Under the pieces are notes generated by a model. The model saw nothing but the letters and a program-made list of their open reading frames with translations. It searched no databases and was not told the DNA's origin. DNA of 64,000 nucleotides from assembly GCA_051294905.1 (NCBI GenBank), contig CM119371.1, forward strand, positions 38,194,001 through 38,258,000, given 5' to 3'. Shown one piece after another: positions 1,456 to 37,730 of this stretch (position 1 is its first letter; each line of letters starts with the position of its first letter). A program made the translations under genes and the position numbers. This DNA is from Botryllus schlosseri. Its lineage: Eukaryota.

Positions 1456-2561
1456 TCAACGAACTTTTCTTTTGCATTTAGTTCCTCCTGGCTTGCTGCC
1501 ACTTCGTTTCGAAGGATTATGCGCCATCAATTGCCCATCAGTGGAGAGTGATAATGATTTAGGCAGCTTACAGGCTGTCGGGGCGGGAAAATTCATTAAC
1601 TGCTGAAATGAACGGTCTTGCTCGTCTTTTGGCATGTCGTCCCAATCCCAAGGAGATACCAAATACTTTTTACAATTCTCAGCAAGGGTAAAAGTACCAC
1701 GGCCTGTGATACTCTTTCGTACATCCAAGTATTGTGAAGTGATCGCTGATTTGAGTAGATTAATTAGATCTGGTAACTTTTTCTTTTTCCAATCTGTCAA
1801 TCGCTTGAGAACATGGTTCATGCTCTCGCAGTTGTTATTGGTGAACCATTTGTGCTCGGCGCCGATAAAGCTACGCATTTGCCAGACCTTTTTTCGCAAC
1901 AACGGTAGCAATCTATTTTGTAAGTATGTGACCAGCATTGGGCATATGCTATGGCACCTAGTGAGTAGGTCTTCTTCTCTTCGATTAAATTCAATTTCGT
2001 CCTTGCTATCCAACAGATTGAAGACTTGATTCACCAGACTTTTTCTCAAATGCTTGCTTGCACCGATGCCGTGCTGAAGTTTGTCGACCAAATTTGTCTT
2101 TAAATGATTGACACAGAGAACGTGCTTGCAGTTTTTGAACGAATTTTCTATTGCTGAGTGTAGTGCAATTTCGTCGTCTGTCCCCACGACAAGGTGATCG
2201 AAAGTACCTCCTATAACGGAGCTAAGATGACTGAAGAAGTCGTTAAATGTCCCTCTATCTGACCTATGGTGGAGATATATGGGACCAATGAAAATCGGAT
2301 TTTCCTGCGTTCTGGTGCTAATCATCTTCACGTTTTTGAAAACTGCTACAGTAGCGTACACATTGCCTAGGTTGTATGTCTTGTCAATTCCAAGTACAGT
2401 TTTTCCAGTACAACACATCTTTTTAAGATCTGTTATTTGATCATCGGTGTATACAATTATGCTGGATGCTTTTGCTGGAGAATGGATGACTCTTCTCACA
2501 AATTTTTCCGTGTGCATCATGTTTATGACATCCAAAAGTTCGTCTGCATAACAGTCTCGCG
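1456..2561 (-). pseudogene. C-terminal half of MULE transposase (DDE core), cut from its N-terminus by the Maverick insertion
   Basis: Motifs LGIDKTYN (D1), VGTDDEIAL (D2), HVLCVNH (CxxH), TNNNCESMN (E); frame is open up to the TSD and in phase with ORF 17493-19562. Confidence 0.9.
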
Positions 2562-3784
2562 AGTAGTTATATAGATCGGTCGTGACGGGCTATGGGGCTC
2601 TTATGGGCGGGGTGGCATGCTAACGAGAAACCGGGGGTGGCATGCTAACGTTTTCGTCTTATGGCGGGGGTGGCATGCTAACGTTTTCGTCTTATGGTGG
2701 GGGTGGCATGCTAACGTTTTCGTCTTATGGTGGGGGTGTCATGCTAACGTTTTCGTCTTATGGGTGCGGTCGCATGATAACGCGAAACTCGTGGTGACAT
2801 GCTAACGTTTTCGTCTTATGGGTGCAGTCGCATGATAACGCGAAACTCGTGGTGACATGCTAATGTTTTTGGTATACGTGCGGCGACATGCTAACGACGA
2901 TAAATGTGTCTGTCGTGTATTCTTACGGTATCTGTGGTGATTCACCATGTGTTCTTATGGGTGCGGTCGTGATTCGCACTTTCAGACATCTCTCGCGTGG
3001 TGTTGAATATGTACGAGTCACCAACAATAACCGCACAAACGGAAACGCGGTTTGTTGTGAGGATTAAGCAGTGCGACCTATATTTCGAATGACCTGCGTG
3101 CGGAATTGTTTCTCGTCCAGCCGCTACTATCGATGATTACACTATAGACCGGTCAGTGTGAAATAATTTGATCGTAAATTATAATATATGATGTAGTTTA
3201 GTCGTGTCAAATGACCGATCGTGTTCCTCGCTATTGATTGCCACCTGAATAATACTTTCGACTTATTCGCTGTTTCGCACCTATAGAATAGTCTGCTGTT
3301 CACAGTCGCAACAAGAATCACAAGTATACACATTTACACATTCGTTTATTACTCTGAAATCAAACTCTTCACAAAAGCACGTACAATCGTATCATTCACT
3401 TTTTTATCATCACCAAAATTATCCAAGTATTCCTCGGTTGAAAACCCTTGAGCTCTTTTTATCAAGAATGCGATAGCATGATCTCCACACACATCCGAAG
3501 TTTTACTCTGTAGCTGTTTCCCAGTCACAGAAAATTCATCCGACTCCAGGAATTGGAATATCCGAGGTTTTAGTGGTCCGAAACCTAGCGAATCATGAAA
3601 ATGAGTATCGTCATCTCTGTATATACACACCCAGTGAGACCCAGGCAAACTCGACTCGTCGTAATTAATGATGATAGCGAATTTTCCGCTAGTTGGTTTC
3701 TTTGGTAACTGGTCTACTGGATAAGTTCCTAGATATAGACTTCGTGTGTCAGGATGGTTATAGAGAATATCATTAATCTCAGAC
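2562..3784 (+). repeat. Left terminal inverted repeat of the Maverick (1223 bp)
   Basis: Reverse complement of 16275-17497; mirrored ORF coordinates all sum to 20059, so no indels; one mismatch noticed at 3775/16284. Confidence 0.95.
2608..2900 (+). repeat. Subterminal tandem repeats in the TIR (~30-bp GGGGTGGCATGCTAACGTTTTCGTCTTATG units and two ~59-bp units); mirrored at ~17160-17450
   Basis: Visible tandem units. Confidence 0.85.
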
Positions 3785-3900
3785 AGAGCCGGCGTAGACG
3801 GTGATTCCAATACCAACAACATGCTAACACTCCAAATAGGTGTGAAATAGTTTGCAAAGCCCCGCAATCGCTGACAACATAATGTCTCGGTCATAGCCAT
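3349..3900 (-). CDS. Second (TIR-borne) copy of the adenain-like cysteine protease with a foreign N-terminal extension
   Basis: Peptide identical to 16267-16710 from SEINDIL onward; GSHW, FHDS, QLQ and VCG motifs present; expression unknown. Confidence 0.7.
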   Translation of the reverse strand: MAMTETLCCQRLRGFANYFTPIWSVSMLLVLESPSTPALSEINDILYNHPDTRSLYLGTYPVDQLPKKPTSGKFAIIINYDESSLPGSHWVCIYRDDDTHFHDSLGFGPLKPRIFQFLESDEFSVTGKQLQSKTSDVCGDHAIAFLIKRAQGFSTEEYLDNFGDDKKVNDTIVRAFVKSLISE

Positions 3901-6900
3901 CTTTTGCGACTTGGCGCTACAGACATCGATCGCTCAAGCGTTGAAATTTTCGTAAGTAGTTTGTCACAGAACCGGATTTCACTGGTAAAATTTAATAAGT
4001 AACGAATAACAGAACCGTTGCAGCGGGTGATTGGAATACCGACAAATTATCACTTATTTCTGATCCAACCCTAATCCTTTGGGAAGTTGACGCTTATTCA
4101 AAAAGGTGTGAAATAATTGTAAAACCCTACGCCACTGACATGACAATGCATCAGACATAGCGATCTAGTTATAGCACGGGTCGGAATCCATTCGCGAGAT
4201 GTTCTATAGGTAAATTGAGATAATCCGAGACCGAATATTTTGACTTTGGCGTAGTGTGAATTGAAATAGGATTGACAAACATGACTACCATCTTTCCAAG
4301 TACCATTTCGATATTATACACACATTGATTTGAAACAAGTAATGGAACATTACAACTCTATTCACGATCCGACTTTCGGTTTGTCAAAGAGACATTTTAA
4401 CATCTTACCATACTCAAAAGAATTATTCATAATATTAACCGATGTTAAAAATATAGTTTTCACTTACTTGATTATATTACTACAACTTGTAAACTTTATT
4501 AATTCATCCTGGTGAACACGAATAGTGTTGCTTGCTTGTAATATTCACATATTGATCTGAATAATAACAACTCATGAGAACCTACAACTTTATTAACGAA
4601 CTAGTTATTTTTTACGAAACTGGAAATGCAAACTCTATTCGTCTCGACATCTCAACATCTTACAACACTCGAAAGAGTCAATTATGAAAACACTGCCAAG
4701 TAAATCCGTTGTACTGTAAAAGCGATTGATAGTTTTCACGACGCGACAACTACAAATCAATGCTTGCGACTTGCGACTAACATTGAGTGTACGAGATTTG
4801 AATATACGAAAAATAACCGAGAATTAATTTTTCGCAGATGAATCCGTATACTTTAATGTAAGCTATCATAAGACAAGTAAGTCCTTTACGATGACATTGA
4901 TTCACAATCCGATATTCTCATTATACACATTTTGAAATCCCATCATACCCATTTTCGAAATCAACTCTTAACGAAAATACGAATAGTCGTGGCAACTCGA
5001 TTATAATCAAAGTAATTCATGATTATACAGATTGTATTACACCCAACACCAAAACAAAAGGACTTTTTAGTTGATTAAATTCATATCATTCGTCTTCAAC
5101 TTGTGTCTTTTCTAGATTGCACGGACCAATTCGTTACGAGCGAGTTGCAACCAAAGTTAAGAAATCTTTGTGAAATCTTTGGATGAATATAGCTAACACA
5201 ATCACTTATCGCTGTTTCAAGTATTTCACAGGTGTGTCGCCTATCTAAAAGTATGCATGCGTTCGATTCCCGTACCGACTGTCGCGGTATTTATGAATTA
5301 AGGTAAAGATGAAGCACCAGTGTCGTTGCTGTCGGAATTCGTGACGGCGAATTGAAACATACACGCATTACACAGTGTGAAAATATCACTTTGGATATCG
5401 AAGGGTGATTAATACTTAATCCGTCCACACTCTCTATAGAACGCGCTAAATGTAAAATATCGTGAGGTTACACTCTAACACTTTGATCATTACAAAAGCA
5501 AATTGGTATATGTTTGCTAGAAGCATCCTGTTCAACTAGAAGTGTCTAGTACACAACACTCGTAATATCAAAGAAATACTTGCTACACTGTAATTCACTT
5601 AACGTGTTTTGCATTGTTGTTCATTTGTAGTATTGATTGTTTTTGAACCCCCAAATAATAATTCCCGACATGAAACCAAACCGCTGAAAGTCGTTACCAT
5701 CACAACGAAACAATTTGTACGATGTTTGTCAAATGCATCCTATAGTTAGGTGTACTAGAATTATTTGTGTAACACATACGCCGACAATGCAATCGAAAAT
5801 TTTTCCGTTGTCATTCGCTAAAGTAAATGTCATCACAATACTCATCAAGCTGTCATCTGTAAATCAAGATTACATCCAACTTGTAACTGTATCGTTTAAC
5901 TACCGGGTTGCATCAGTTTGCTATTTTTGTCATTTAGTGACTGCTAAACATACCAAACGATACACATTCACTTACGAAATACTGTGTTGGTCGTAATTTC
6001 CATCATCGTGATAATCGAAGTACATTTGTTTCGAATTCGTAACAGCCGACTATGACACGACGATCTTTGGAAAAGTTATGCTTGGAAGATTGGTTGTATA
6101 TCACGAAAAATAATTACCACTCATATTGATACTGTTATCCCTTGTTCGGTATTTTCAAACGAGTAAAATTTATTACTTGAGTTACTCCGCTTACTATATT
6201 CAAATGTAAACACAGCTGTCTTTCAACATCACAAAGACATCGATATAAAGTATACAATCAAACGCAACAAGTTTTACTTTTGTAGGACACTAATTATTAT
6301 TCCACGCATCTCATTTCATACTAAGTGTATATGAAAGATGTTCATGGTACACGAATATATTCGCTCATGCTACGAACATACGCAATGATTGGTGACGCTT
6401 TCACACTATTTCGATTTACTGTAACAAAAACAACAACAACAATTTTCACTCTCTTGACTTACGAAAACAACAGACGAACCTTCATTCAATATTTTGTTTT
6501 TGTCAACAAGTTACTTTTTCATGAGACCCCCACTACTCTTACAAAAGTACGAAAGATATTTACATCACACAAAGTAATCAACTTTACTCGATATTCTCAC
6601 ATTACGAAACTAAAGAATGGTTGGTTTGACTCTACAAACTGTTTCGTTACCTCAAGACCTTTATTGTCTGAATGGTTGTTCATGTGTCTTAAGAACCGAA
6701 TAGTTCAACACAGCACTAGTACCAACAGAAACATCAGAGTTGTTTGCACAAAAGTTTGTATGTGTACAGTATGCGAATACCATGTGTAAGTCCAGCACAA
6801 TTGCGGTATCCATCCGAGTTTAGTTAACACAAATTTATTACAACGGAGCCACGTAAACTTTCGTGAAAGAAAAGCATACTCACTTCCAGAGGGTTATTTC

Positions 6901-7639
6901 AACGCCATAGCAGTACTCCAACAACAAAGTACATATGTTTTCTAGTCACCGTCCTTACATATTTCACATAGATCAATCTACTTTGCTAACGAAAAGTGCT
7001 GAGTCACCACATGATTACCCTCACAACAAAACAGCTAGAAGATATTATCATACAAAAATATTTCTAACCCTTTGCGCACCAGTGACAAATCATACAACAA
7101 ACATTTTTTGTGAGGTGAATTGCTGTTCAGTGCCAAGTCTACCTGTTGAAACGTACATTAAAACAACACAGTCACAATTCAATTAAAACCACGAATCTAT
7201 TTTCATTTCGTTGCCTACAGAAAAATAAATTTTAATTTCCCAAAACATACTTGTAGTCAAGAAAAATTTTTATTAATCAAAATCATCGACTTCTGTTTAC
7301 GGTGTTAGTGTGCGCATGTCATACACGTGGGGACCGTATTAAAATGGACACGACACGACTGAATGTAAGGAGATAGAAGTCTATCGCATAGATTTACATG
7401 TGGTCTTCGCTATGGTTTCAAAAAACGAATCATCTCTTTTGCGTTGATCTAGACCGAGCAAGTTAGTTAATGGCCATGATTGTGTTTGTCATATGCGAAT
7501 GATAGGGTTACTGTCAAATCTACATACAACAACCTTCTGGTACTCAAAATAACAATTTCATTCTCTCCCTTCGTAGTCATATACCGCCAACTCGGCTTTT
7601 TTGTTCATCGACAGCGGCGTTTAACAAGACCAACTACAC

Positions 7640-8100
7640 TGAACCCACGACGTTTACCTATGTAAAATTACCACTTTCACTTGACAGTCCGTCGTTTACC
7701 TGGCTAAACATATCATTTTCCTTTGGAGATCTGATGTTTACCAAGAGTAAGAAACCTTTTTCACTTGGAAATCTATTTTTTCCCTGGGTAACAAACCTTT
7801 TTCACTTGGAAATATATTTTTTCTCTGGTTAACAAACCTTTTTTCACTTGGAAATATATTTTTTCTCTGGTTAACAAACCTTTTTCACTTGGAAATATAT
7901 TTTTTCTCTGGACAACAAACCTTTTCCCCCGGGTAACAAACCTTTTTCCCTGAGCAACAAGCCATTTTCACTTGGTGGTCCGTCGTTTACCTGAGTAAAA
8001 ATATCATTTTCCTTTGGGGATCTGGCGTTTACCCAGTGTAACAATACATTTTCTCTTGGTCATCTAGCTTTTCCTAGAGTAACAAAACCATTTTCATTTT
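7640..8100 (+). repeat. Internal tandem array of ~39-41-bp units (TTTCACTTGGAAATATATTTTTTCTCTGGTTAACAAACC-like)
   Basis: Near-identical units at ~7755-7925, more degenerate units on both sides. Confidence 0.8.
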
Positions 8101-8799
8101 GAAATCTGACAAACACGCCTGACAATTTGGTATTTGTTGTATTGACGATAGTTTGAAATAGATTACAACGAACAGTGACGGAAATATACACAGACTACCG
8201 GTTTCAGAGTATACCTGCATCAGTCGTATCACATCAATATCATCGGTTAACCACATACAATATGCTCTTGTACACCGAAATACATGTTTTGGAAAATTGG
8301 ACAATAGGCTTCGATAGTTCTGTGATGTCCGGGTTCGTGCTTTGGATTTTCCAGAGTCAAAATGTCTGAATAAAACACCTCCTTGACGATGGTTGGTATG
8401 TGGATAACGGTGTTCGGAAAACGGTTGGATTTATGTAACCCATCGCGATAACAACTCCAGGTCGAGTTTTCCTCCCGCACGTTTACTATATTGTGTCTTT
8501 ATTGGTCACTGTATGTCTCGACATTCAGTTTGAAATCGGAAACCCTGATAAAGTACGTAACCGGATCCGGATATCAACTGTGAATCGATAAACCAATGAA
8601 CAATATTCAAAGTAAACATGTTACACCCTGTGTTTCCACGACAAAATACCATCCAGACATACATCGCGCTTGTTTGCCCACACCAGTATACGCGCAAATG
8701 GAGGTGTGTGACATTGCATGCAATGTGTTGGTATACAAACATCGATCCACAGACATTATCATAACCGGTAATTTTGATGTAGATCGAATGTCACTCGAG

Positions 8800-9464
8800 A
8801 CAACTTTGCGAAAAATGTCTCAGACTGTCGACGCGCTGGGGATCGCGAGCCTAACATGGATATAATTGAGCTAACGCAAAAACTCGCTGCGAATTCTTGT
8901 TATGATTGCGAGTTAATGAATCCGCGTAAACTCAAACAAACCACGTTCTGTGATAAAAGTGAATTGGACGCAAATGTGGAGGATCGCTTTTTCATCAAGT
9001 GTGAACAATTAAACACAGATCTATTTGAAATAACGAAGCATCCTCAAAAGATCGAGCAAGATAACTGCATTCAAGTATCGTTCTGGTTGTATAATAATGT
9101 CAAATTACGGATGTTGTCGTTTTTTTATGATTGTTTATGCAAATATTTTCGAGCCGACTGCTTCATGCTACTTTCGATGGATATCAACTCGTTTTTCATC
9201 GCGCATTCAGCACCGCTCGATGATATTCTCATTTCCGAGAAAAGGAACGAATTTTACTGTGATTACGAGAATTGGTTTCCGCGTTATTTTTGTGATGAGC
9301 ATCGAAACGAATTCTTGACTGATCCGATTTCTTTTGACCGCTCGAGACAATGCTGTAAAGATGCGTATGCTCATTATCTTCATCAACCTGGTTTGATGGA
9401 AGTGAGATACGACGCCGATGCATCTTTCCACGCTCTCAATCGCTTTCACAGTGACCCAAGATAA
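8800..9464 (+). pseudogene. Truncated, degenerate protein-primed DNA polymerase B fragment
   Basis: In-frame FAKNVSDCRRAGD...KLAANSCYD (motif B KxxxNSxYG altered), KLRMLSFFYD, MDINS (motif C DTDS altered), PGLM; in-frame stop at 8775; no exonuclease or motif A region recognised. Confidence 0.85.
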
Positions 9465-10090
9465 AATAAATCACGGCGTTGAATGTTATTGTGGTGTACT
9501 TGTATATATTTTGTGTGACTTTAATTTATTTGTATATACTGTATGTTTGATGTGATTTATTTGTATTGTGTGTTCATGTATCATTTGTTTTCCAGATGGA
9601 TAACACTATTACCTATCTAAAGTCTGTCATGTCGTTAGATTTTAATGGTTTACATGTAGAGATGATTACCTTGGAGCGGGAATTACCACAGTTCACGATT
9701 CTTGGTTCTACCAAACAACCCCCAATGTCGATGATACCCGATTGATGAAAAGCAGACCACCAAAACTTGTGATCGTGGTAAGGTCTATAGTTTGGTATAG
9801 TAACACTGTTAGATTTTAAAGCGCTATGAACGTATTATGAATCCTCTTATGTGATTTATTATTTTACAGATTGGGATCAGCTGCTTGACGACCTGAAGCA
9901 TTCGTAACGCTACAACTTCCACTGACGATGAGAAACAGATGAAGATTTCATAACCCGGCGAAAATTGCTAAATCGAACTTTACTGGGTTTATATATTCCG
10001 CTAGAACAAGATGACTACAACAGTGGATATTCCCAACCTTGTTGATATATAAACACATGCACTTTATCGAGTTTCAATAAACAACAAACG

Positions 10091-10699
10091 ATGGAATTGA
10101 TCCACCCATTCGCGTGTATTGTGAGTGGTCCTTCAAGAAGTGGGAAGACTACTTTCGTTGCCAAGCTGATTAGACATGCGACATCAATGATTAAACCTAG
10201 TGTGTCCAGGGTCGTATATTGTTACAATAATTATCAGGAGGTTTTCAAGACGATGCATAACGTAGAATTCCACGCTGGTCTAGATATTTTAGAAGAGTTG
10301 AAGGTTTGCTCTGAAGACACCTTGATTATAGTGGATGATTTCATGACTGAGACAGCGAAAATTGCAGACTACTTTACAAGATTTTCTCATCATTCGGCAA
10401 AGTCAATTTGCTATATCACACAGAACCTGTATCACAAGGGTAAAGGAGCACGTGACTTGAGTCTTTCAAGCTCGTATATGGTGATTTTCAAGAATCCGCG
10501 CGACCAACAGCAGATCAGTTTTCTTGGTCGACAAATGTACCCAAACTCTAGATTTTTAACAGAGGCTTATCGTGACGCTGCTAGACGACCTCATAGTTAT
10601 TTATTCCTCGATCTCACGCAAGAAGCACCTGAAAATCGACGCGTTATGACCAATATATTCCCTGGTGAAACCATGGTGGTTTATAGCCCGATGGTATAA
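10091..10699 (+). CDS. Maverick packaging ATPase (A32/FtsK-HerA-like)
   Basis: Walker A GPSRSGKT, Walker B IIVDD, ITQN, FKNPRD, PHSYLFLDL. Confidence 0.95.
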   Translation: MELIHPFACIVSGPSRSGKTTFVAKLIRHATSMIKPSVSRVVYCYNNYQEVFKTMHNVEFHAGLDILEELKVCSEDTLIIVDDFMTETAKIADYFTRFSHHSAKSICYITQNLYHKGKGARDLSLSSSYMVIFKNPRDQQQISFLGRQMYPNSRFLTEAYRDAARRPHSYLFLDLTQEAPENRRVMTNIFPGETMVVYSPMV

Positions 10700-10703
10700 A
10701 TAG
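10694..10703 (+). promoter_or_regulatory. TATA-like box GTATAAATAG overlapping the ATPase stop, 30 nt before the next ATG
   Basis: Identical decamer overlaps the integrase stop at 12469-12478. Confidence 0.5.
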
Positions 10704-10732
10704 CCAAGCACAGAGACGACTTTAAACTCAAA

Positions 10733-11080
10733 ATGACCAAGGTACCAGCTCGGACACGGCGGCATATTCCCACACTAGAGTTCCTACATAAAAGTAAACC
10801 CGAGATACGCAAGCAAATTATATCGGGGGCCAGCAAAGAATTGATCGAGTGTATATGCGATTGTACAAAGAACATTTTAAACGGTAACATCCCTCTTTCA
10901 AAGTATAAAAGAAAGCGACTATCAGCTCATAAATGTAGTTTACGTCGACTTGTCAGGAAAGACATCCCTATTCGACATAAAAAACGTATGGTCAACCAGA
11001 ATGGGGGTATGTTTATGACTCTATTATCAAGCATCCTACCCGTCGTCACTGGTTTACTCGGTAATCTTTTCAAAAAATGA
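10733..11080 (+). CDS. PZ-like protein, N-terminal part (basic, ending in QxGG plus a hydrophobic/amphipathic helix)
   Basis: ICDCTKNILNGNIPLS...NQNGGMFMTLLSSILPVV pattern; position between ATPase and integrase. Confidence 0.8.
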   Translation: MTKVPARTRRHIPTLEFLHKSKPEIRKQIISGASKELIECICDCTKNILNGNIPLSKYKRKRLSAHKCSLRRLVRKDIPIRHKKRMVNQNGGMFMTLLSSILPVVTGLLGNLFKK

Positions 11081-11472
11081 CTTCTTTTAAAAAAATCTTC
11101 ATAAATCCGAGCCCGATCAACGGAGCTGACGTTCAGAAATTGAATTTGGATATCGACAAATGTATGAGCGACATATTACAGATGAACATACCCCAAGAAC
11201 GAAAATTAGCCTTATATAACGACGCACTAAATCGTTATCAAACAAAACACGACACACTGAATCAACCGATGAAAATCGATATATCAGAACAAAGGAATCT
11301 ATTTTCGGCTAGTGAGTTGGACGCACTGCGACGCCTGATCAAGGGTGAACCATCAAGGATTCCTATACCATCACCGAGTAGCCAACGAAGCAAAGTAAAG
11401 ACTCAGCATGCCAAGACGAAAAGCGGTCGTACACCCAAGACCCCGAGACGATACGGATGGGAGCCATACTAA
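11077..11472 (+). CDS. PZ-like protein, second part
   Basis: LDIDKCMSDIL...ERKLALYNDALNRY pattern; ATGA overlap with the upstream ORF. Confidence 0.7.
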   Translation: MTSFKKIFINPSPINGADVQKLNLDIDKCMSDILQMNIPQERKLALYNDALNRYQTKHDTLNQPMKIDISEQRNLFSASELDALRRLIKGEPSRIPIPSPSSQRSKVKTQHAKTKSGRTPKTPRRYGWEPY

Positions 11473-12478
11473 GTATTTCACGCCAGGGCTACCCGGTAGT
11501 TACCGCGGTGCATACGTATTCTCTAGAGGGCGGAATAGAACCAAAGTCAAGGAGTTTCTTTCGGGCAAGGACGCGTACACAAAACATTTTCCATATCGAA
11601 AGAAATTTAAGAGACCTAGAGTGATTACGTCCGGTCTTGGTGTTCAGTATCAAACCGATCTCATGCATATGCAAAACCTTTCAAAAGAAAACGATAATTT
11701 TAAATATGTGTTGGTGACGATCGATTGTTTCAGCCGATTTTTATATCTGTATCCGCTCAAGAACAAAACCTCGCAAGGTATTATTCGCGGATTCAAGGAA
11801 ATATTTAAGGAACGTATACCTCATGTTATTCAAAGTGATCAAGGTTCTGAGTTTACTAACCGTGCGTTTCAGACTTTCTTGAAAGAGAACAATGTGCGAC
11901 ATTTTCATACAAATAGTGAACTGAAAGCATCGATATGCGAGCGTGTTATTCGTACTGTGAAGCAAGTGTTATACCGTTATTTCACGCATAATAAGACTTT
12001 GAATTATGTCAGTGTCCTGTCTGAGATATGCCGGGGGTATAACACTACTTTTCACGTTGCTATAGGGTGTCCTCCAGCAGATGTTGATTATTCAAATCAA
12101 GAACAAATTTTCCACAGGTTATACGGTGACATGACCCCTAAAAAACCCAAACTAACTATCGGCACACCGGTCAGGATTTCGAAATCACGTGGTAATTTTG
12201 TAAAAAGTGCCTTGGCGAGTTGGACCGAAGAAATCTTTTTCGTATCTCAATGTCGTAAAGGTGACCCTCCTACTTATCAATTGAAAGACTACCATGGTGA
12301 AGTTATAGACGGTCGCTTTCAGGGTGAAGAGTTACAACCAATAACGAAAAATAATAATATTTACAATATCGAAAAAATCCTGTCTACTCGCAGGAAAGGA
12401 AAGAAAACGCAATATCTTGTAAAATGGTTGGGTTATCCGTCTACATTTAATTCTTGGGTCTCGGATTTGTATAAATAG
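11408..12478 (+). CDS. Retroviral-like DDE integrase (c-integrase) with C-terminal chromodomain
   Basis: YQTDL (D), IQSDQGSEF (D), ICERVIRT (E); YNIEKIL...YLVKWLGYPSTFNSWV chromodomain. Confidence 0.97.
   Translation: MPRRKAVVHPRPRDDTDGSHTKYFTPGLPGSYRGAYVFSRGRNRTKVKEFLSGKDAYTKHFPYRKKFKRPRVITSGLGVQYQTDLMHMQNLSKENDNFKYVLVTIDCFSRFLYLYPLKNKTSQGIIRGFKEIFKERIPHVIQSDQGSEFTNRAFQTFLKENNVRHFHTNSELKASICERVIRTVKQVLYRYFTHNKTLNYVSVLSEICRGYNTTFHVAIGCPPADVDYSNQEQIFHRLYGDMTPKKPKLTIGTPVRISKSRGNFVKSALASWTEEIFFVSQCRKGDPPTYQLKDYHGEVIDGRFQGEELQPITKNNNIYNIEKILSTRRKGKKTQYLVKWLGYPSTFNSWVSDLYK
12469..12478 (+). promoter_or_regulatory. TATA-like box GTATAAATAG overlapping the integrase stop
   Basis: Same decamer as 10694-10703; ATGs at 12488 and 12506 follow. 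Confidence 0.5.
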
Positions 12479-12487
12479 ACACCGAAA

Positions 12488-12721
12488 ATGTTGTTCAACC
12501 AAACTATGGATTCTGATTCCGTCTCATCTCGCATGGGCCAAGTCTCGAACAGTCTGAAAAACCAGATTGTGTTTATTGTACAGATTTGTATGTTAGTGTG
12601 TGTAATCGTGTTTTCCTTATATCAAATTTCTGTCGGGGTGGATCGTGAGATATATTTAACGCTACTGTCTTCTTCACTTGGGTATTTATTACCGAATCCA
12701 TCACCTCATCGTATATGTTGA
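12488..12721 (+). CDS. Small two-helix membrane protein of the Maverick
   Basis: Two hydrophobic segments ending LLSSSLGYLLPNP; fills the gap between integrase and minor capsid. Confidence 0.7.
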   Translation: MLFNQTMDSDSVSSRMGQVSNSLKNQIVFIVQICMLVCVIVFSLYQISVGVDREIYLTLLSSSLGYLLPNPSPHRIC

Positions 12722-12734
12722 AAGAAACAATAAA

Positions 12735-13565
12735 ATGTTGTTGACTCTACCTTCGAATGCGAGTTTGGATAAATTTCCGAATACTAGCACAGATTTTCAA
12801 ACGGAACTTTACAAAGAATTAGAAATGAATCGCCATGAGCTAGGATTATGTGAGCTGACCTTCCCCAATGATTTTCAACCGCGAATTGAAGTGACAGCGA
12901 AAAGTATCGGTTTTGGATTTGTCGATGCGAATGGATACACCGATCGGTATTATATTCCCGAAGGCTCGTATTACAGCATCGGTGAAATGTTAGAATCGTA
13001 CGAGAAATATTACATGGGGGACATTTTCATTTTACAAGGATTCGGAGACTTTAGAATCACATTCAGAAGATTAGTCACGAGTAAAAAAAGATACAAGCGG
13101 GGTGTACCCATAAATACCGATACCACAGACTCTAGCGTCAAACACATACCCCGTACCACGCATGATTCACCCGAGCCTTACGGACTGATACCACTTGGTT
13201 CTGTGTTGGACACAATAACATTTAGACGCGTTGTATCTCGTCGCCGCGGAGTGGTAGAATTTATATTTACACCCGCGATAAAGTTGGAACGGATTGATAA
13301 GGTTTATGTGTATTGTGATCTGATACAACCAAGACCACACGGTAACAAGCTGCAACAACTTTTACGGGTGGTTACTGTAACCGCTAAACCGAATGAAAAC
13401 CAAATCAACATATTCCCAAAACCATACTTCTTTGCTTTAGCGAAAAACAATTTTAGAACAATACGAATTTATCTACGTGATGCGGCTGGCAACCCTATTA
13501 AATTTCGAAAAGCACCAGTGACAGTGACCCTACGCTTCCGTCGTAGAGCTGTTGATTCAATATGA
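12735..13565 (+). CDS. Minor capsid (penton-like) protein 1
   Basis: LTLPSNAS..FPNT start; VYVYCDLIQP..GNKLQQLLRVV...PYFF...IRIYLRD..G.PI.F C-terminus; ATG at 12735. Confidence 0.88.
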   Translation: MLLTLPSNASLDKFPNTSTDFQTELYKELEMNRHELGLCELTFPNDFQPRIEVTAKSIGFGFVDANGYTDRYYIPEGSYYSIGEMLESYEKYYMGDIFILQGFGDFRITFRRLVTSKKRYKRGVPINTDTTDSSVKHIPRTTHDSPEPYGLIPLGSVLDTITFRRVVSRRRGVVEFIFTPAIKLERIDKVYVYCDLIQPRPHGNKLQQLLRVVTVTAKPNENQINIFPKPYFFALAKNNFRTIRIYLRDAAGNPIKFRKAPVTVTLRFRRRAVDSI

Positions 13566-14233
13566 GTTACATCACGTTATCTGGCACCCAAGGTGAATTC
13601 TCGGTGGTGTTACCGAATGAAATTATTTGTAATGAACTCGCATTGATGGATATGAGTTTTGTCAGTGAATCTCTTGATCGAATTATAATCAATCACGATC
13701 AAGCACTCTGGGAGCTACATAATGAGAAAGATCGAATAGTAGATGCGTACCTAACACCACTTGGGAATTATGCAAACAACCTCGAGTTGACGCGAAGAAT
13801 ATTAGCTGAAAGTTTCAAACACTGTTTCACCGAAAGAATCAACGATGAACTTTTCCGAATTCGTTACTCGAAACGTATCACACTCCACCCCACGGATATA
13901 TTCACGAATTATTTCAGTGTAGTTGATCAAGTGTCGACGCCAGTATGTAATGTCACGTCAATCAAACCTAAACCAACTCAATCCCACCTCAGATATCTTT
14001 TTGTGTATATCAATGTACTACGACATCATCCGGTGGGTGATTACATGAGTCAATTGCTTCGTGTGATCCAAGTAAATAACGAGACGTGTATGAGACAAGA
14101 AGTTGTATATGAAAAACCTTTTTATTTCCCAGTATCGATTAACCACATCCGCGATATAAAAATCACCATCCGGGATCAATACGGTCAGTTAGTGCATGAT
14201 ATAGAGACCACATTGACACTCCACGCACGATGA
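13562..14233 (+). CDS. Minor capsid (penton-like) protein 2
   Basis: ELALMD; YLFVYINV..HPVGDYMSQLLRVI...PFYFPV...IKITIRDQYG. Confidence 0.8.
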   Translation: MSYITLSGTQGEFSVVLPNEIICNELALMDMSFVSESLDRIIINHDQALWELHNEKDRIVDAYLTPLGNYANNLELTRRILAESFKHCFTERINDELFRIRYSKRITLHPTDIFTNYFSVVDQVSTPVCNVTSIKPKPTQSHLRYLFVYINVLRHHPVGDYMSQLLRVIQVNNETCMRQEVVYEKPFYFPVSINHIRDIKITIRDQYGQLVHDIETTLTLHAR

Positions 14234-14625
14234 AAATAGTGACGTTAACCACCTCTATGCTTGGTGTTGATTTTGAACACAGACTACTCACCATCAACAA
14301 CATCCCGACAAGATATTGTGAATTAGCCCTCATGGAGATCGATTTCACTTTAACCGAACCGGTGATTGGTCAATATTTGTTTGTGTATTGCGATATTATT
14401 CACCCTCACTTACTTGGAGATGTGTTAGCGCGTTTATTACGAGTTATACCGCTGACACCTGGTGATGTCACGCATAATTGGGTAGCGACAAATCCGTATT
14501 ATTTCCCTGTTTCAAAAGATGTTGTAGATTCTGTATGTCTTTACCTCAGGGATGAGTTTGGGGAACCTATAAATATAATAAGTCGTTCATTGCAAGCTAC
14601 ATTTAACATTAGGAAGCGATTATGA
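14230..14625 (+). CDS. Minor capsid (penton-like) protein 3, minimal core without central insert
   Basis: ELALME; YLFVYCDII.P.LLGDVLARLLRVI...PYYFPV...LYLRDEFGEPI. Confidence 0.8.
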   Translation: MKIVTLTTSMLGVDFEHRLLTINNIPTRYCELALMEIDFTLTEPVIGQYLFVYCDIIHPHLLGDVLARLLRVIPLTPGDVTHNWVATNPYYFPVSKDVVDSVCLYLRDEFGEPINIISRSLQATFNIRKRL

Positions 14626-14993
14626 AAGTTGTTTTCACGTGTGATCATCATTCTGTCCATCGTCATTATAACCAGACAGGTGATGGTTATGGATATTTTA
14701 GCGGTGGAGTTCAAGCCGGTTCCGGTATTGGGAGTTTGTTTAAATCACTCGGTCGTTTAGTGACACCTATTGCGAAATACGCCGGCGGTCAATTGTTACG
14801 GACTGGAGGTGAAATAGCGAGAGATCTATTACGGGGTAACTCGATCAAGTCTAGTGTTGTCAAGAGAAGTAAACAAGCTGGTGGTCGAGTGATTGATAAA
14901 ATTTTAACCCCAAAAGCTATAAAAAGGAAAAAAACAAAGTCAAAGAACACTTCATCCAAACGTCGTCGTAAACAACAGGATATATTCGACTAA
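14622..14993 (+). CDS. PW-like basic putative core protein
   Basis: YNQTGDG..F.G..QAGSGIGSLFKSLGR; K/R-rich tail ending DIFD; lies just before the major capsid gene. Confidence 0.85.
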   Translation: MKVVFTCDHHSVHRHYNQTGDGYGYFSGGVQAGSGIGSLFKSLGRLVTPIAKYAGGQLLRTGGEIARDLLRGNSIKSSVVKRSKQAGGRVIDKILTPKAIKRKKTKSKNTSSKRRRKQQDIFD

Positions 14994-14998
14994 GAACT

Positions 14999-16270
14999 AT
15001 GTTGATGCACGCAGGTTCCCGAGAATGTCATAACTCGGGATTAAACATATTTAGTATACCCCACACACAAACCAGTATTGAGGAATCGCAATATGTCGTC
15101 GTCAAACCCCATAGTTTAGGTAATGTCATGGAAGTACAATTACCAAGGACGGATCGATATATGGATCTACAAAACACGTTCTTGAGATTACGTTTGAAGC
15201 TCACTAAACGCGATGGAACTGATTTAGCAAACGATACACAAGTGGGCCTGGTCAATAACATGTTGGATTCTCTTTTCAAACAAATCGATGTAACTATTTC
15301 AAATGAGGTTATCACAAATTCGGATAATTGTCATGCGTACAAAGCTTATATCTCTCGGTTGTTGAATGATACTCACGAGGCCTCGGAGAGTTTTGTGCAA
15401 GGACAAGGTTTTTATAAAGATGTCGCTGGATCTATGGATGTTCTTGGTGCAGCGAATACTGGATATGTTAAACGAAAAGACCTTACAAAAAACAGCACTC
15501 CGTTAGAGTTGATCGGAAAAATTCGAATGGGTCTTTTTGAACAGTCTAGATGTATGTTGGATAATGTCGACATGAAATTAAAATTTACACGTAACGAAGA
15601 TAATTTCTGTCTGCTCGGTGATGCGGAAGATGTACAAATTGTTTTACTCGAAATGGAGGTGTATGTCAAACAGATGAAGATCGCTGAAAGTGTAAGCTTG
15701 GCACACAAGTCTGTATTACAGAAGAATACTGCAAAGTATCCCTGGATACGCTTACAAATGTCGACTCATACATTCGCGGCGGGCTTGTCGAAAATTGATA
15801 GAGAGTTAGTTAGCGGCACCATGCCAAAGAAGATCGTAATTGGTTTAGTTGAGACCACGACATTTAACGGTGTTCGGACCAAAAACCCATTCAACTTTAA
15901 ACACTTTGATGTTCAAAATCTTTCGTTAAGTGTGGATGGGCGTCAAATTAACGGACGCGAATTTCATTTCGATTTTGATAAACATGGCGGACTCGAAGGA
16001 TATATGGCACTATTCTCTCAGACAGGTCGCTGGGAATCCGAGGCACCTTTAAATATTTCACGCAAAGATTATGTCAATGGATACACTCTTTTTGTGTTTG
16101 ATTTGACGCCCGATAATAGTTTGGGATGTTATCAACTTCATAAGACAGGAACTGTGCATCTGGTTTTGACTACATCGAAGCCGTTACCAACCTCCGTAAC
16201 CTTGTTATGTTTGAAGGAGTTTCAACATCTTCTACAACTGAATCAAAAAAGACAAGTCGTCGAAATATGA
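14999..16270 (+). CDS. Major capsid protein (PY, double jelly-roll)
   Basis: LNIFSIPHTQTSIE, NNMLDSLFKQIDV, AYKAYI, PKKIVIGLV, NPFNFKHF, GYTLFVFDLTPD. Confidence 0.95.
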   Translation: MLMHAGSRECHNSGLNIFSIPHTQTSIEESQYVVVKPHSLGNVMEVQLPRTDRYMDLQNTFLRLRLKLTKRDGTDLANDTQVGLVNNMLDSLFKQIDVTISNEVITNSDNCHAYKAYISRLLNDTHEASESFVQGQGFYKDVAGSMDVLGAANTGYVKRKDLTKNSTPLELIGKIRMGLFEQSRCMLDNVDMKLKFTRNEDNFCLLGDAEDVQIVLLEMEVYVKQMKIAESVSLAHKSVLQKNTAKYPWIRLQMSTHTFAAGLSKIDRELVSGTMPKKIVIGLVETTTFNGVRTKNPFNFKHFDVQNLSLSVDGRQINGREFHFDFDKHGGLEGYMALFSQTGRWESEAPLNISRKDYVNGYTLFVFDLTPDNSLGCYQLHKTGTVHLVLTTSKPLPTSVTLLCLKEFQHLLQLNQKRQVVEI

Positions 16271-16710
16271 ATACGTCTGAGATCAATGATATTCTCTATA
16301 ACCATCCTGACACACGAAGTCTATATCTAGGAACTTATCCAGTAGACCAGTTACCAAAGAAACCAACTAGCGGAAAATTCGCTATCATCATTAATTACGA
16401 CGAGTCGAGTTTGCCTGGGTCTCACTGGGTGTGTATATACAGAGATGACGATACTCATTTTCATGATTCGCTAGGTTTCGGACCACTAAAACCTCGGATA
16501 TTCCAATTCCTGGAGTCGGATGAATTTTCTGTGACTGGGAAACAGCTACAGAGTAAAACTTCGGATGTGTGTGGAGATCATGCTATCGCATTCTTGATAA
16601 AAAGAGCTCAAGGGTTTTCAACCGAGGAATACTTGGATAATTTTGGTGATGATAAAAAAGTGAATGATACGATTGTACGTGCTTTTGTGAAGAGTTTGAT
16701 TTCAGAGTAA
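16267..16710 (+). CDS. Adenain-like cysteine (maturation) protease, 147 aa
   Basis: ATG overlaps the capsid stop (ATGA); MNTSEI, YPVDQLP, GSHW (His), HDSLG (Asp), QLQ...VCG (Gln, Cys). Confidence 0.95.
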   Translation: MNTSEINDILYNHPDTRSLYLGTYPVDQLPKKPTSGKFAIIINYDESSLPGSHWVCIYRDDDTHFHDSLGFGPLKPRIFQFLESDEFSVTGKQLQSKTSDVCGDHAIAFLIKRAQGFSTEEYLDNFGDDKKVNDTIVRAFVKSLISE

Positions 16711-17497
16711 TAAACGAATGTGTAAATGTGTATACTTGTGATTCTTGTTGCGACTGTGAACAGCAGACTATTCTATAGGTGCGAAACAGCGAATAAGTCG
16801 AAAGTATTATTCAGGTGGCAATCAATAGCGAGGAACACGATCGGTCATTTGACACGACTAAACTACATCATATATTATAATTTACGATCAAATTATTTCA
16901 CACTGACCGGTCTATAGTGTAATCATCGATAGTAGCGGCTGGACGAGAAACAATTCCGCACGCAGGTCATTCGAAATATAGGTCGCACTGCTTAATCCTC
17001 ACAACAAACCGCGTTTCCGTTTGTGCGGTTATTGTTGGTGACTCGTACATATTCAACACCACGCGAGAGATGTCTGAAAGTGCGAATCACGACCGCACCC
17101 ATAAGAACACATGGTGAATCACCACAGATACCGTAAGAATACACGACAGACACATTTATCGTCGTTAGCATGTCGCCGCACGTATACCAAAAACATTAGC
17201 ATGTCACCACGAGTTTCGCGTTATCATGCGACTGCACCCATAAGACGAAAACGTTAGCATGTCACCACGAGTTTCGCGTTATCATGCGACCGCACCCATA
17301 AGACGAAAACGTTAGCATGACACCCCCACCATAAGACGAAAACGTTAGCATGCCACCCCCACCATAAGACGAAAACGTTAGCATGCCACCCCCGCCATAA
17401 GACGAAAACGTTAGCATGCCACCCCCGGTTTCTCGTTAGCATGCCACCCCGCCCATAAGAGCCCCATAGCCCGTCACGACCGATCTATATAACTACT
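16275..17497 (-). repeat. Right terminal inverted repeat of the Maverick (1223 bp)
   Basis: Reverse complement of 2562-3784. Confidence 0.95.
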
Positions 17498-19373
17498 CTC
17501 GCGACAGGCTACTGTGCCCTTCTTTGCTTACTTTTTCCCGGTGCTTAGTGTGGTGGATCTGACTTATATTCCGAGGCATTTGCGAAATACTTTCGGAATC
17601 ATTTTGAAGATCAACGTAAACTCGCTTTCCTGTCCCGTATGTAACCTTTTCCTTTATCTTCTCAATAGTGCTGGGCGGAGTGCGGATGTAATTTTGAAAG
17701 TTCACAGAGCTGTTTCCGTGTGGACTGCAGTCCCCAGATATACCCTTGTACTCCACGATACACACATTACATGGATCCGATGGTCCGCTTTCAATCCAGC
17801 TTATACGTTTTTCGTAACCAGGGTTGTTCTTTGATTTAGCGTAGTATCGCCCAACCATGAGTACGTCACCTGGAGAAGGCTGCGGTGATAACGGCAAGTA
17901 CTCCTTCATTTTTAGGGTACAAATAGCACCCCTGTGGCACCGCGGCTTGTATACATACCTGAGTCGGTCCTCGGTCTTCAAGTAATATGAATATGTTTGC
18001 TTGGTTTTCGTCCAAGCTCCCATGTCATCATAAAATATGCGATGAATTTTAGCAGCCTTTCGAAGTATGTTTGTTTTAAAATCAACGATAATGTAACAAT
18101 TGTCTTTCCGTCCTGGAGGAATCTTCGAAAGGGCGTTTTTACAATCCATAATTTTTTTCACCACATCCTCAATTTTCAAAAACTCGTTAAAGGGCAGCTT
18201 CGTTTCATTGTTCAGCTCATTGTTCAGGTTAGGTAGAACTGATTTGGTTTTGTCTCCGTCAGCAACTTCTCCTATTTCAGAATTCATCTGTTCCCCATTC
18301 ATTTGGTCAATAGGCGAATCTTCACTTAGGATACTGCTTTCTAGGAGCGAATGCTGTTGTTTATTAGCATTCACATCGCCAAGTTCGCTCTTATGAAACG
18401 TTTTGAAGTCGTCTTGTTCGCGTATATTCGGCTTGTCAATGTCGTCTTTTTCGCGTACATTCGGCTTATCAATGTCGCTTTTCTGATCCTCCGATTTCAG
18501 TTTTGATTCGCATAAACTATTTGGATCACTTGAAATCAGATCGGTGATTTTGATGATTGGCACGAAGTGATTCGGTCGAAATGGATTGCTTGTCGTGGGC
18601 ACGGTAGTTTGTGTCCACATCAGAGTCGCAACTGGTATGGCAAATTTCGACACACCCCGGCCGCAACATTTGCGCGTGAACGGTTCTGTCAGGTATTCAT
18701 TTGCCAATGTTGACGGATAATATGAGCGAATCGCGGAGCCAAGGGCGGCACTCAATGCGTAAATATGCATCATCTCGGACCAATGCCCCGGAATGCTTGC
18801 TTTTTGTACCAGACTGGCATAAGGCGATGACACAATTCTAACGTCAGCTATAAGGTCAACAAATCCCTCTGCGTCTTCGTCATAATATTTCGGATGCTCA
18901 ATAATTTCGAGCGCGGTCAGAAGCCTCAAGCGCAAGTGGTGTTTCGCAGTGCCGTATAAGGCAAGCGACATTGCGCGGTAAAAACAATTCCCATCGCCAT
19001 CAACTCGCAAGGCCGTGTGATCCGTGGTGATGATATAATGAAACTGCTTCAAAATCATAAGTGAAACCTCATCCACTACTGCTGCCTCATTTGGCATGCT
19101 CCGATCAGGCTCGAGTACTTTATACAAACGAAGAATCCGTTTTATAGCTGTACAATGTTCCGGATTTGCTCTAATATGTTGCAATGCCCACTCATAATTG
19201 AATTCACCTTCGAAGAATATGCAACAACGACATATGAAAATCTGGATTTTCCGCTCATTGAAGCTACCGATCTTCGCACAAGAACAGTGAGAGTATCTGT
19301 TGCATTCGTAGCATTCGACGTACTCGTCGGACTTTAAACAATCAAGTCCGCAAACAGTACAAGGATGAGACAT
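17498..19373 (-). pseudogene. N-terminal half of MULE transposase: PHD finger, OTU-like (vertnin-like) cysteine protease and linker; ends at the Maverick junction
   Basis: CTVC...C..C..YSHC.C...CRCC PHD pattern; VDGDGNCFYRAMS and PNHFVPI OTU motifs; first ATG 19373 (frame open from 19562); the TAG stop comes from the Maverick end. Confidence 0.85.
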
Positions 19374-20737
19374 AATCCAAGACGAAAACGCAACGTTGTT
19401 GCGGAAAAAACAATGAGAATTGCTATCCTTTCCACTGTCCTTCGCTACCTCAAATGATGACCCCAATGGGATTGCTACGAGCGCTGCCGCGCGGGGAAAG
19501 TTGCAAATTTTGCACAATTTCTGAAGCGAGGGGACGTCACAATCAGGTTCTTTGATAAACACATGTTAACTCTGTGGTGACGTGGTGACGTTGCAACTCT
19601 ACCTCAAGTACACGTACAAATGTATCGATATGTGAATTACAAAATTAATGTTAGAGACAATTAGTCACACTTATCAGTGGTCACACTAACGTAGTAGGTT
19701 GGTATTAATGGTGTTTCTACAACTATAGGATGGTCATTGGTCATTTTACACCAGGCTGGTATTCGTTATTACGGTTCCTGATCCACCGACTATTATGGGT
19801 CGGGGCCTTTGCAAGACACCGTCTACGCGGATCGTACGAGCAGTACAAGCCCACACCCTAAACCAGAAACACTTGGGTAGGAATACTGGAACCGACTTGG
19901 GCCTGATTCGAACCCCCAACCAATTCGTTTTGCAGCTGCGGAGCTGTGAATAGGCTATATTCAAGCGAACTAAAGCGGAACTAGTCAAGTATATTCCGCG
20001 CTAGTTAAGCATTATTCTTGTCGGATATTATAATAAAAGATCACGAGCGTGAATGCGTTACGACTCGCTAGTCGATAGGCTATACCTTGCCCCTCCCTGT
20101 GAAATATTATAAAGCAGAAATGATACGTGAATATCCCAATTCAGCGCAGCAAATATATGCAATTACAAAGTAGTACATATCCGGACGTTTTCAACTTTAG
20201 TTTACTCATTGCTCATTATCAGGATGACAATGGTGCCGATGTCTCACTAGTACGTCATTTAGGTTTCGCAAAGGTAACGAAAAAGAAGTCTTCCCAATTT
20301 TGAAATTATGCGCAGAATGATTCAGTTCTAAAGAAAACGATCAATAATCTAAATTATAATCTGTCGATCATGATGTGAAGTTTATTTGTAAAATAAAAAT
20401 TACTGTCAAGCCCGCAACCAATATCCTCGCGAATTCGGTTTACCAGACATATCGCGTTCCGAAACGGGTTAATCCAGTTTTGTATGATGCGTTGATTGAT
20501 AGCAGGCATGCTGGAGCTTGTGAGACAATGCTGTTTTCAAATCCTCCTTGCCTTCCTAACTAATTACCATCAAGAAATGAACTCCCTTTGAAACGTCGTT
20601 GATGTTCAATGTTCATGTTCGTTCACGCTATCAAATTCAGTTTGCGAACATAACCGGCCACATTATCATGTTAGGCATGCTGGCACTTTAGCACCGAGTA
20701 GGCAGAAAAACTTCGTCAGAGATCACCGCTGTATGTA

Positions 20738-21179: not shown

Positions 21180-21625
21180 CTTCATTGCTTCATTGGCTTC
21201 ATTTTTACATTAGCTGGTTTCATTAGCTTTTCGTTAGCTTACTTTTCATTAGCTTACTTTTTCATTAGCTTAATTAGCTTTTCATTAGCTTTTCATTAGC
21301 TTACTTAGCTTTTCATTAGCTTTTCATTAGCTTAATTAGCTTCATTAGCTTTTCATTAGCTTACTTTTCATTAGCTTACTTTTTCATTAGCTTAATTAGC
21401 TTTTCATTAGCTTTTCATTAGCTTACTTAGCTTTTCATTAGCTTAATTAGCTTCATTAGCTTTTCATTAGCTTACTTTTCATTAGCTTACTTTTTCATTA
21501 GCTTAATTAGCTTTTCATTAGCTTTTCATTAGCTTACTTAGCTTTTCATTAGCTTAATTAGCCTTTCATTAGCTTAATTAGCTTTTCCTTAGCTTAATTA
21601 GCTGCATTAGCTTTTCATTAGCTTG
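21180..21625 (-). repeat. Right arm of foldback-type MULE (TTCATTAGCTT arrays)
   Basis: Reverse complement of the 1-575 array. Confidence 0.9.

Positions 21626-36401: not shown

Positions 36402-37730
<1,329 letters not shown>

Follow-up and report, generated by a model that had tools for sequence, protein, structure and literature searches.

Autonomous Mavericks/Polintons are flanked by 6-bp target-site duplications (TSDs), are bounded by long terminal inverted repeats (TIRs) that follow the AG...CT end rule, and encode an rve integrase with a chromodomain, a major capsid protein (MCP) of the double jelly-roll type, a candidate packaging ATPase and an adenain-like protease. The same set of features, some of them in putative form, is found in an element that occupies positions 2562-17497 (14,936 bp) of a 64,000-bp stretch of the Botryllus schlosseri genome (assembly GCA_051294905.1, contig CM119371.1, positions 38,194,001 to 38,258,000; hereinafter, the window). 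Unlike autonomous Mavericks, this element retains only 221 codons of polB, the gene for the DNA polymerase of family B that is primed by a protein (pPolB), has a foreign, apparently non-coding sequence in the 6.2 kb on its polB side, and carries a protease gene at both ends; it is a Maverick derivative rather than a full member of the group. The polinton pPolB consists of terminal protein (TP), vOTU, exonuclease and polymerase domains, and the vOTU domain has been proposed to release the TP, according to PMC11161782; the complete relatives of the Botryllus element in the same genome encode a pPolB that matches the TP-vOTU-exonuclease-polymerase architecture given there. A reading of the letters alone had suggested that this element was a polymerase-dead but virion-complete satellite whose lineage kept moving with a borrowed polymerase (hereinafter, the original prediction). 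The present analysis leads to a different conclusion, namely that we are dealing with a genuine, very recent insertion of the integrase type, made by a chimeric Maverick that is incapable of replication. The right 8.7 kb (8799-17497) come from a Maverick with altered polB motifs (clade A, see below), and the left 6.2 kb (2562-8798) from one arm of a palindromic, Maverick-ended repeat that we denote X-element.

The insertion, its left half and the polB relic

The element, with ends of the form 5'-AG...CT-3' (AGTAG...CTACT), is flanked on both sides by the hexamer CTCGCG (left TSD copy, 2556..2561; right TSD copy, 17498..17503). The exact 6-bp TSD of the original prediction is borne out by paralogues of the interrupted host transposon that lack the insertion: the hexamer is single in 3/3 copies examined (empty sites L021-L023), each of which shows 0 mismatches in 1,200 bases of the flanks (800 bp on the left and 400 bp on the right). 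Besides the interrupted copy, the host transposon has seven copies, these three among them, that are 100% identical over an 803-bp probe. The TSD and the mismatch-free empty sites indicate that the insertion is real, exact and very young. The length of the element falls within the 14,076-15,959 bp span of three measured complete copies.

The original prediction mentioned a polB trace with the motifs DINS and NSCYD, and this trace is present as described: the open reading frame (ORF) at 8778-9464 bears both motifs, has no Pfam match and contains the last 221 codons and the stop codon of a clade-A pPolB gene (8799..9464, plus strand), in 100% identity with three complete copies. The identity to these three copies extends over bases 8799-10298. 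Complete relatives in the genome have an uninterrupted polB of 1129 codons, of which the window keeps only residues 909-1129. When the whole 64-kb window was searched by tblastn with full polB proteins (clade-A polB and a canonical relative), the TP-like ORF located upstream of polB and two other left-side ORFs, only 8799-9461 was matched. A hidden or spliced polymerase in 3785-10000 is ruled out by the ORF and Pfam scans, the comparison of the left half with complete copies, and this tblastn search. The window copy is thus without its own polymerase and, because the coding sequence for the TP, vOTU, exonuclease and most of the polymerase is gone, its anatomy implies that it cannot replicate itself. 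Given that the relic is 100% identical to complete copies, the loss of polB must be very recent.

The place of the missing part of polB is taken by a 5,014-bp module (3785..8798), here called X, which is AT-richer, apparently non-coding, contains an array of 41-42-bp tandem repeats (7716..8096) and is shared with palindromic Maverick-ended elements. As originally noted, there is no long ORF in this region: the longest one in 3785-8798 encodes 154 amino acids, and a Pfam scan of the 19 longest of the 54 listed ORFs of the left half produced no match at E<0.05. This barrenness had been taken for the old decay of polB, but the left half is instead a foreign sequence: X is 98-99% identical to a separate repeat found as inverted pairs (the arms of the X-elements) and shows no DNA or translated similarity to complete copies, whether on their polB side or in their right half. 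Two other identities of X were considered and rejected. For an RNA gene or a tRNA carrier, there is no Rfam match at E<=0.1 and no tRNA; for a coding sequence, mismatches in the diverged part show no 3-base periodicity (26/17/30; 59/46/66), and the alignments contain 35-41 gap columns per ~1 kb.

The junction between the protease gene and X (3784|3785) is common to 30 other places among 40 scored matches, and 28 of these form 14 inverted pairs, with the two junctions 11.0-13.6 kb apart in 13/14 pairs. When the outer ends are added, most X-elements come close to the 14.1-16.0 kb of complete copies; a packaging-size constraint is a possible explanation of this proximity to unit genome length. 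Two X-elements were measured, one of 13,794 bp (arms of 6,446 bp, 99.69% identical; TSD CTTGAT) and the other of 13,213 bp (arms of 6,138 bp, 99.90% identical; TSD AGTGTC). In each, the termini are AGTAGT...GATCG, both arms contain a protease ORF of 194 codons, and the centre measures ~0.9 kb. X-elements are abundant, Maverick-ended, non-autonomous giant palindromes, and the segment 2562-8798 of the window, which consists of an end, the protease gene and X, is one arm of such an element. The arm is single, and the two-arm structure of X-elements is absent from the window. X in the window ends 44 bp before the inner arm end of one X-element and is followed by polB; an end exactly at the boundary between palindrome arm and centre is ruled out, as the arms of that element run 44 bp further. 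In addition, there are shorter inverted pairs, ~7.9 kb overall, that contain only the X core (query 1696-4302) at 97-98% identity (e.g., C1:21141334-21149231, C4:20122902-20130800 and C15:4427749-4435647); because these share nothing but the core, X belongs to several palindromic families. In the contig runs, word depth over X was ~10 times that over the Maverick right half, a depth that is not a copy number.

The junction of X with the 3' end of polB (8798..8799) is blunt, with no bases shared between the two sides. A genome search with 3785-10045 as the query gave an end-to-end match in the window only, all other matches either stopping at query position 5014 or starting at 5015. Probes of 201 bp and 60 bp centred on the junction were each spanned by 1/40 scored matches, the window itself, the rest being one-sided, and no second copy of the X|polB junction was found in the 495-Mb assembly. 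The right half is present in the genome in 24 copies including the window. A listed polB gene accompanies 13 of these, an adjacent polB C-terminus eight, and a nearby polB 30-mer one, so that 22/23 other copies adjoin polB sequence (the remaining one, on the small contig C178, was left out), and the window alone lacks the gene body. In the eight copies with an adjacent polB C-terminus, this C-terminus is clade-B-like in 8/8 cases.

The TIRs, originally described as near-identical and 1.2 kb long, contain no differences over 1,213 bp. The left arm (2562..3784), whose terminus starts with AGTAGTTATATAGATC, and the right arm (16275..17497) are identical in an exact comparison of 2562-3774 with 17497-16285; the first mismatch is at 3775, and the homology stops at 3784|3785. 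An inverted-repeat search delineated slightly longer arms, 2554-3784 and 16275-17505 (1231 nt), which include a partly palindromic flank. Subterminal repeats with units of 33 bp and 58 bp are located at 2632-2869 in the left arm. Complete copies have TIRs of ~750-790 bp and one protease gene, whereas the repeat of the window reaches through the protease gene as far as position 3784. In a column-wise comparison, both arms are of the Maverick type up to 3574, of the X type at six sites between 3618 and 3703, and again of the Maverick type at 3709-3773. This mosaic is private to the element: its own two arms match at 100%, and the next best sequence, among 40 scored matches, at 97%. Both arms share one two-parent mosaic, and therefore the ends must have been made identical after, or while, the mosaic formed. 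As for other termini in the genome, the terminal ~16 bases vary among the complete copies on C10, C13 and C6 (L001-L003, L016-L018), which are otherwise 99.6-99.8% identical, and even the two ends of one complete copy differ in these positions (AGTAGTTATATAGATC vs AGTAGTATAGTAGATC); one of the terminal variants of complete copies is the terminus of an X-element.

Two clades of polB genes

A protein search of the genome yielded 41 long polB matches that were scored (75-100% identity; 36 without stops), all of which were read at the motif columns and assigned to clade A (21 genes) or clade B (20 genes). Clade B has the canonical ExoI motif FDIES, DSNSLY in motif A, KLAGNSSYG in motif B and, in 19/20 genes, DTDS in motif C; the corresponding sequences in clade A are FS(I/M)ES, TSDSLY, KLAANSCYD and DINS (the latter in 20/21, with one match ending short there). 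The reading frame is open, without stops, in 17/20 genes of clade B and 19/21 of clade A. Accordingly, none of the 21 clade-A genes has the canonical pPolB motifs, and all have S for the ExoI Asp, T for the motif A Asp and the ...NSCYD ending of motif B. In contrast, all four motifs are of the canonical kind in the outgroups and in 19/20 clade-B genes; the one exception in clade B has an altered motif C and a stop. Furthermore, a stretch of ~257 bp, which in clade B and the outgroups encodes the final ~85 residues, is missing from the window relic, and five aligned clade-A proteins all stop at the same point, without these C-terminal ~85 amino acids.

Canonical residues at all four motifs are also found in database relatives (30-43% identity), some of which carry PF03175, and a clade-B protein passes the threshold of this profile (31 bits, cut-off 25.8). 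Clade-A polB has no PF03175 match and no polymerase match in Pfam or PDB sequence searches, and its homology to polymerases was established through the PF03175-carrying database relatives together with the clade-B match. A six-frame search of the genome with PF03175 produced no match, but neither did it in control genomes, and hence carries no weight.

In a maximum-likelihood tree, clade A is monophyletic (21/21, support 1.0, stem 0.22) and nested within a grade of clade-B genes, which implies a single origin from a canonical ancestor. The pairwise ratio of nonsynonymous to synonymous substitution rates (dN/dS) for the whole gene is 0.18-0.26 in clade A (dS 0.16-0.28) and 0.10-0.17 in clade B. 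By domain, the values for clades A and B are, respectively, 0.15 and 0.19 in the part comprising the vOTU-like domain and zinc finger, 0.16 and 0.06 in the exonuclease part, and 0.22-0.36 and 0.06-0.08 in the polymerase parts. Thus, the vOTU-like part is equally constrained in the two clades, and constraint on the exonuclease and polymerase parts is 2.5-6 times weaker in clade A. The altered motifs that had been attributed to the decay of the window copy are instead the inherited signature of a clade of 21 genes, 19 of them open, that evolves under purifying selection. In family B polymerases, the Asp of motif A and the second one of motif C are ligands of the catalytic metals. The motif changes suggest that clade A has very probably lost both synthesis and proofreading, and the clade-A protein nevertheless appears to have kept a necessary role, priming or end binding being the simplest possibility.

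Upstream of polB, three near-identical clade-A copies contain a 276-codon ORF (L003:2500-3330; L003:4021-4300 in the same region), which duplicates both the first and the last segment of the N-terminus of polB and also supplies a middle part that the polB ORF is without. This ORF looks like a stand-alone TP-like gene that arose via partial duplication. Other polB variants have a longer N-terminus in frame, with ORFs of 1209-1300 codons. There is also a second internal duplication: in complete copies, a 257-bp segment upstream of polB (L003:3406-3662) is 77% identical to the polB stop region (9408-9663 in the window).

Both clades have been mobile recently. Three clade-A copies with different TSDs (GACGTG, GACGGG and CACCAC) are 99.55-99.78% identical over 15.1-15.2 kb, and clade-B polB at four loci is 99.91-100% identical. 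The original prediction called for a search for an autonomous Maverick with the same termini, and a potential helper of this kind is present: a clade-B copy of 15,959 bp (TSD ACCGTA) has a canonical polB and the same first 16 terminal nucleotides. The right halves are 97-98% identical whichever polB clade adjoins them, even as the neighbouring polB genes range from 76 to 100% identity, and the divergence of the window from its closest relatives switches back and forth between 0% and 2-4%, so recombination between elements is common. Beyond the right end of the clade-A copy on C14, at a distance of ~251 bp, there is a second Maverick right terminus of another subtype (L029), which suggests adjacent or nested insertions.

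Genes of the right half and the surrounding locus

All ORFs to the right of 10046 are open. The first of these (10046..10699, plus strand; 202 amino acids from the first Met) encodes a putative packaging ATPase with a P-loop, for which the Pfam matches are weak: RNA_helicase at 22.0 bits (cut-off 21.5), AAA_14, and Pox_A32 at 16.9 bits, below the cut-off of 22.8. It is followed on the plus strand by two small ORFs of 126 and 135 codons (10700..11472), which are intact in six compared copies save for one stop in one copy, and by a 359-codon gene (11399..12478, plus strand) for a retrovirus-like integrase (rve, PF00665, E 2.6e-16) with a C-terminal chromodomain (Chromo, PF00385, E 1.5e-8). The integrase ORF of the C10 and C6 complete copies has 293 codons, compared to 359 in the window and on C13, and the alignment contains 4 gap columns. 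Three paralogous ORFs of 301, 225 and 141 codons (12660..14625, plus strand) have in common a C-terminal domain of ~75 amino acids (E 1e-11 and 3e-13). A structural model of a 131-residue paralogue (predicted local distance difference test score, pLDDT, 64) has 8 strands, with jelly-rolls among the best fold matches, which are weak (E 6e-3 and weaker); the three proteins are predicted to be all-beta and are possibly jelly-roll capsid-associated proteins, but this comparison of folds identified no single jelly-roll penton (minor capsid) protein. Next come a small basic ORF of 126 codons (14613..14993, plus strand) and the 432-codon MCP gene (14972..16270, plus strand). The AlphaFold (AF2) model of the MCP, built from an alignment of 43 sequences (pLDDT 92), has the double jelly-roll fold and matches the MCPs of iridovirus, PBCV-1, Sputnik and mavirus in Foldseek comparisons (probability 1.00, E 8e-17 to 1e-11).

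The protease ORF is present in two copies. The left copy (3349..3933, minus strand; 194 codons) derives its first ~50 codons from X, as in the X-elements, and the right copy (16144..16710, plus strand) starts outside the repeat. The protein has no Pfam match and no PDB sequence match; among its language-model neighbours, 23/30 are clusters in which 13-38% of the members carry PF00770, the adenovirus protease family, and these neighbours are the basis for the putative adenain-like identity.

The originally claimed series of uninterrupted ATPase, integrase, capsid and protease ORFs therefore stands as far as the reading frames, the integrase and the MCP are concerned, with weaker support for the identities of the ATPase and protease; likewise, the description 'virion-complete' holds for the MCP and is plausible for the remaining virion proteins. 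Nine right-half genes compared with those of six other copies differ mostly by synonymous changes (dN/dS 0.10-0.16, dS 0.05-0.08). These ratios reflect the history that preceded the formation of the chimera. That the capsid and integration genes are intact is due to their very recent inheritance from functional parents, not to maintenance in a satellite lineage of this structure.

The element splits one long minus-strand ORF of another transposon into a downstream part with a MULE-transposase-like domain (1456..2561) and an upstream part with an OTU-like domain (17504..19565); as listed, the two ORF pieces extend to 1456-2589 and 17493-19565 (minus strand). The edges of this host transposon are inverted arrays of ~20-120-bp tandem repeats (window 1-528 and 21205-21624), and it is itself very young. 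Elsewhere in the window, an uninterrupted ORF of 442 codons (36402-37730, minus strand) matches a 26S proteasome regulatory ATPase (PF00004, E 4.8e-42; PF21236, E 1.7e-37) and represents either an intronless gene or a retrocopy.

Origin of the chimera and relation to known systems

Considering the youth of the insertion, the private mosaic of the arms, the length within the family range and the at least two extra events that would otherwise be needed, we favor the formation of the chimera before integration. Under this scenario, to which we assign a probability of about 0.55, the chimera would have arisen when extrachromosomal genomes that were replicating together underwent illegitimate recombination or a template switch, its two ends would have been made identical, and it would have integrated as a unit, with polymerase and TP provided by resident Mavericks with canonical polB (clade B). 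Several points weigh against this. The element is a single copy, so movement after the loss of the polymerase is not demonstrated. In three sister clade-A copies, which match one another at 99.55-99.78% over 15 kb, the TIR identities are only 94.3, 97.9 and 99.7%, which means that homogenisation of the ends is not a regular part of each cycle and that the perfect arms of the window element call for a special event. A parental X-element with the arm type of the window was not found among the scored matches, and no bridge over 8798|8799 was seen among the short contigs listed from three contig runs. The penton, ATPase and protease identities rest on weak matches. Finally, in one bulk RNA run, of which ~6% was sampled, 99 reads fell on 3785-16274 but none on 10457-12541 or 12959-15877, and the depth in the intervening bin 12542-12958 was 0.09.

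The same observations can be arranged into a different order of events, whereby a complete clade-A Maverick inserted first, and a break in its polB was then repaired from an X-element through homologous invasion in the shared end or protease region and end-joining at 8798|8799, followed by conversion between the two arms, so that the form without polymerase would never have moved. That the junction is unique fits this well, as does the combination of one joint within shared sequence (mosaic 3575-3775) with another that is blunt, which is the pattern of one-ended repair; mosaicism is also widespread among chromosomal copies, and ectopic conversion could cause it. However, this route requires at least two further events in a very short time (0/1,200 differences in the flanks and 0/1,213 in the arms), leaves the X-type patch on both arms, including the right arm on the donor side, to be accounted for, and makes it a coincidence that the replacement kept the element inside the family length range, so that we consider it less likely than formation before integration, though still a weighty alternative. 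An error of assembly, in which reads from an X-element and a Maverick were wrongly joined, would be facilitated by the high copy number of both parental repeats, and no listed read or contig bridges the junction, but a joint without homology offers an assembler no shared sequence to switch on and so argues against repeat-induced misassembly; given also the perfect TSD with matching empty site at both ends, the private mosaic on both arms and the normal total length, this explanation is very improbable. Hardly better placed is the satellite lineage of the original prediction, one that lost polB long ago, maintained its own capsid and integration genes and borrowed a polymerase. The anatomy, with no polymerase next to an intact integrase and MCP, is what such a lineage would have, recently active helpers with matching termini occur in the genome, and the parental clade A already looks polymerase-dead yet mobile. 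Nevertheless, the proposed check, a search for the same broken polB elsewhere, found the junction once in the 495-Mb assembly, and with this unique junction no satellite lineage of the window structure is seen; a single copy is also the outcome that the original prediction itself had named as speaking against it. Moreover, the left half is 98-99% identical foreign sequence rather than old polB decay, the 100% identity of the relic points to a very recent loss, and the low dN/dS (0.10-0.16) predates the chimera.

The idea of helper dependence suits the window copy, a one-off chimera, far less well than it suits clade A, and it is plausible at the level of the clade. We tentatively outline a three-tier community, a possibility that we rate below even odds, consisting of canonical clade B, clade A as a stable virion-complete satellite of clade B, and palindromic derivatives, with the window element as a recombinant between clade A and an X-element. 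In this community, clade A would keep the TP/vOTU part under constraint along with the virion and integration genes and would still transpose, without polymerase or exonuclease catalysis of its own; the palindromic tier would comprise genome-length derivatives with nothing but the ends and the protease gene; and the window element would have been replicated, given identical ends and integrated without its own polymerase gene. Maverick replication has so far been inferred from genes, and the action of pPolB and the TP in trans is likewise untested. The Botryllus genome presents a natural experiment with three contemporaneously active forms, one with canonical pPolB, one with a conserved, motif-dead pPolB and one without polB. 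These forms share termini and have near-identical recent copies, which makes trans-complementation, packaging-size limits and parasitism directly testable. For annotation, there are two warnings: mutated motifs in a polB relic are not necessarily a sign of decay, and where half of an element is devoid of ORFs, that half may be foreign sequence instead of a gene that has eroded.

In full-text literature, supplements aside, we found no description of palindromic, protease-carrying elements with Maverick ends, of a genuine Maverick clade whose pPolB is open, selected and motif-dead, or of a recombinant between a clade-A-type Maverick and a palindromic element. The defective Mavericks of vertebrates, as presented in PMC8097293, resemble the elements discussed here in having a non-functional polymerase and many copies per genome. 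However, the vertebrate elements of PMC8097293 are old fossils with stops and frameshifts, whereas the window element shows a clean and very recent replacement, and clade-A polB has an open reading frame with altered catalytic motifs and evolves under purifying selection. Polinton-like viruses, Tlr1 and transpovirons, as described in PMC5499653 and PMC11161782, are similar to clade A in that they encode a selected pPolB-derived protein with non-canonical motifs. In these systems, the protein is fused to a superfamily 1 (SF1) helicase and has no exonuclease domain (PMC5499653, PMC11161782), the change in motif C is confined to its first Asp, motifs A and B are kept, and these proteins are now predicted to be active (PMC11161782). 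Loss of the first motif C Asp alone is no proof of inactivity, as cautioned in PMC11161782; in clade A, unlike the case to which this caveat applies, the second motif C Asp and the motif A Asp are changed, and the ExoI Asp and the C-terminus are lost. The layout of the clade-A protein, with a TP remnant followed by vOTU, exonuclease and polymerase domains, is also distinct, and the changes affect ExoI, the Asp in motif A, the Gly in motif B and, in motif C, the second Asp.

Non-autonomous Polintons were reportedly noted by Kapitonov and Jurka in 2006. The X-elements resemble non-autonomous DNA transposons as well as the defective-interfering or snap-back genomes of viruses in that they consist of ends and one gene, form giant palindromes and are close to unit genome length (13.2 and 13.8 kb), features to be expected of parasites that exploit a replication and packaging machinery.

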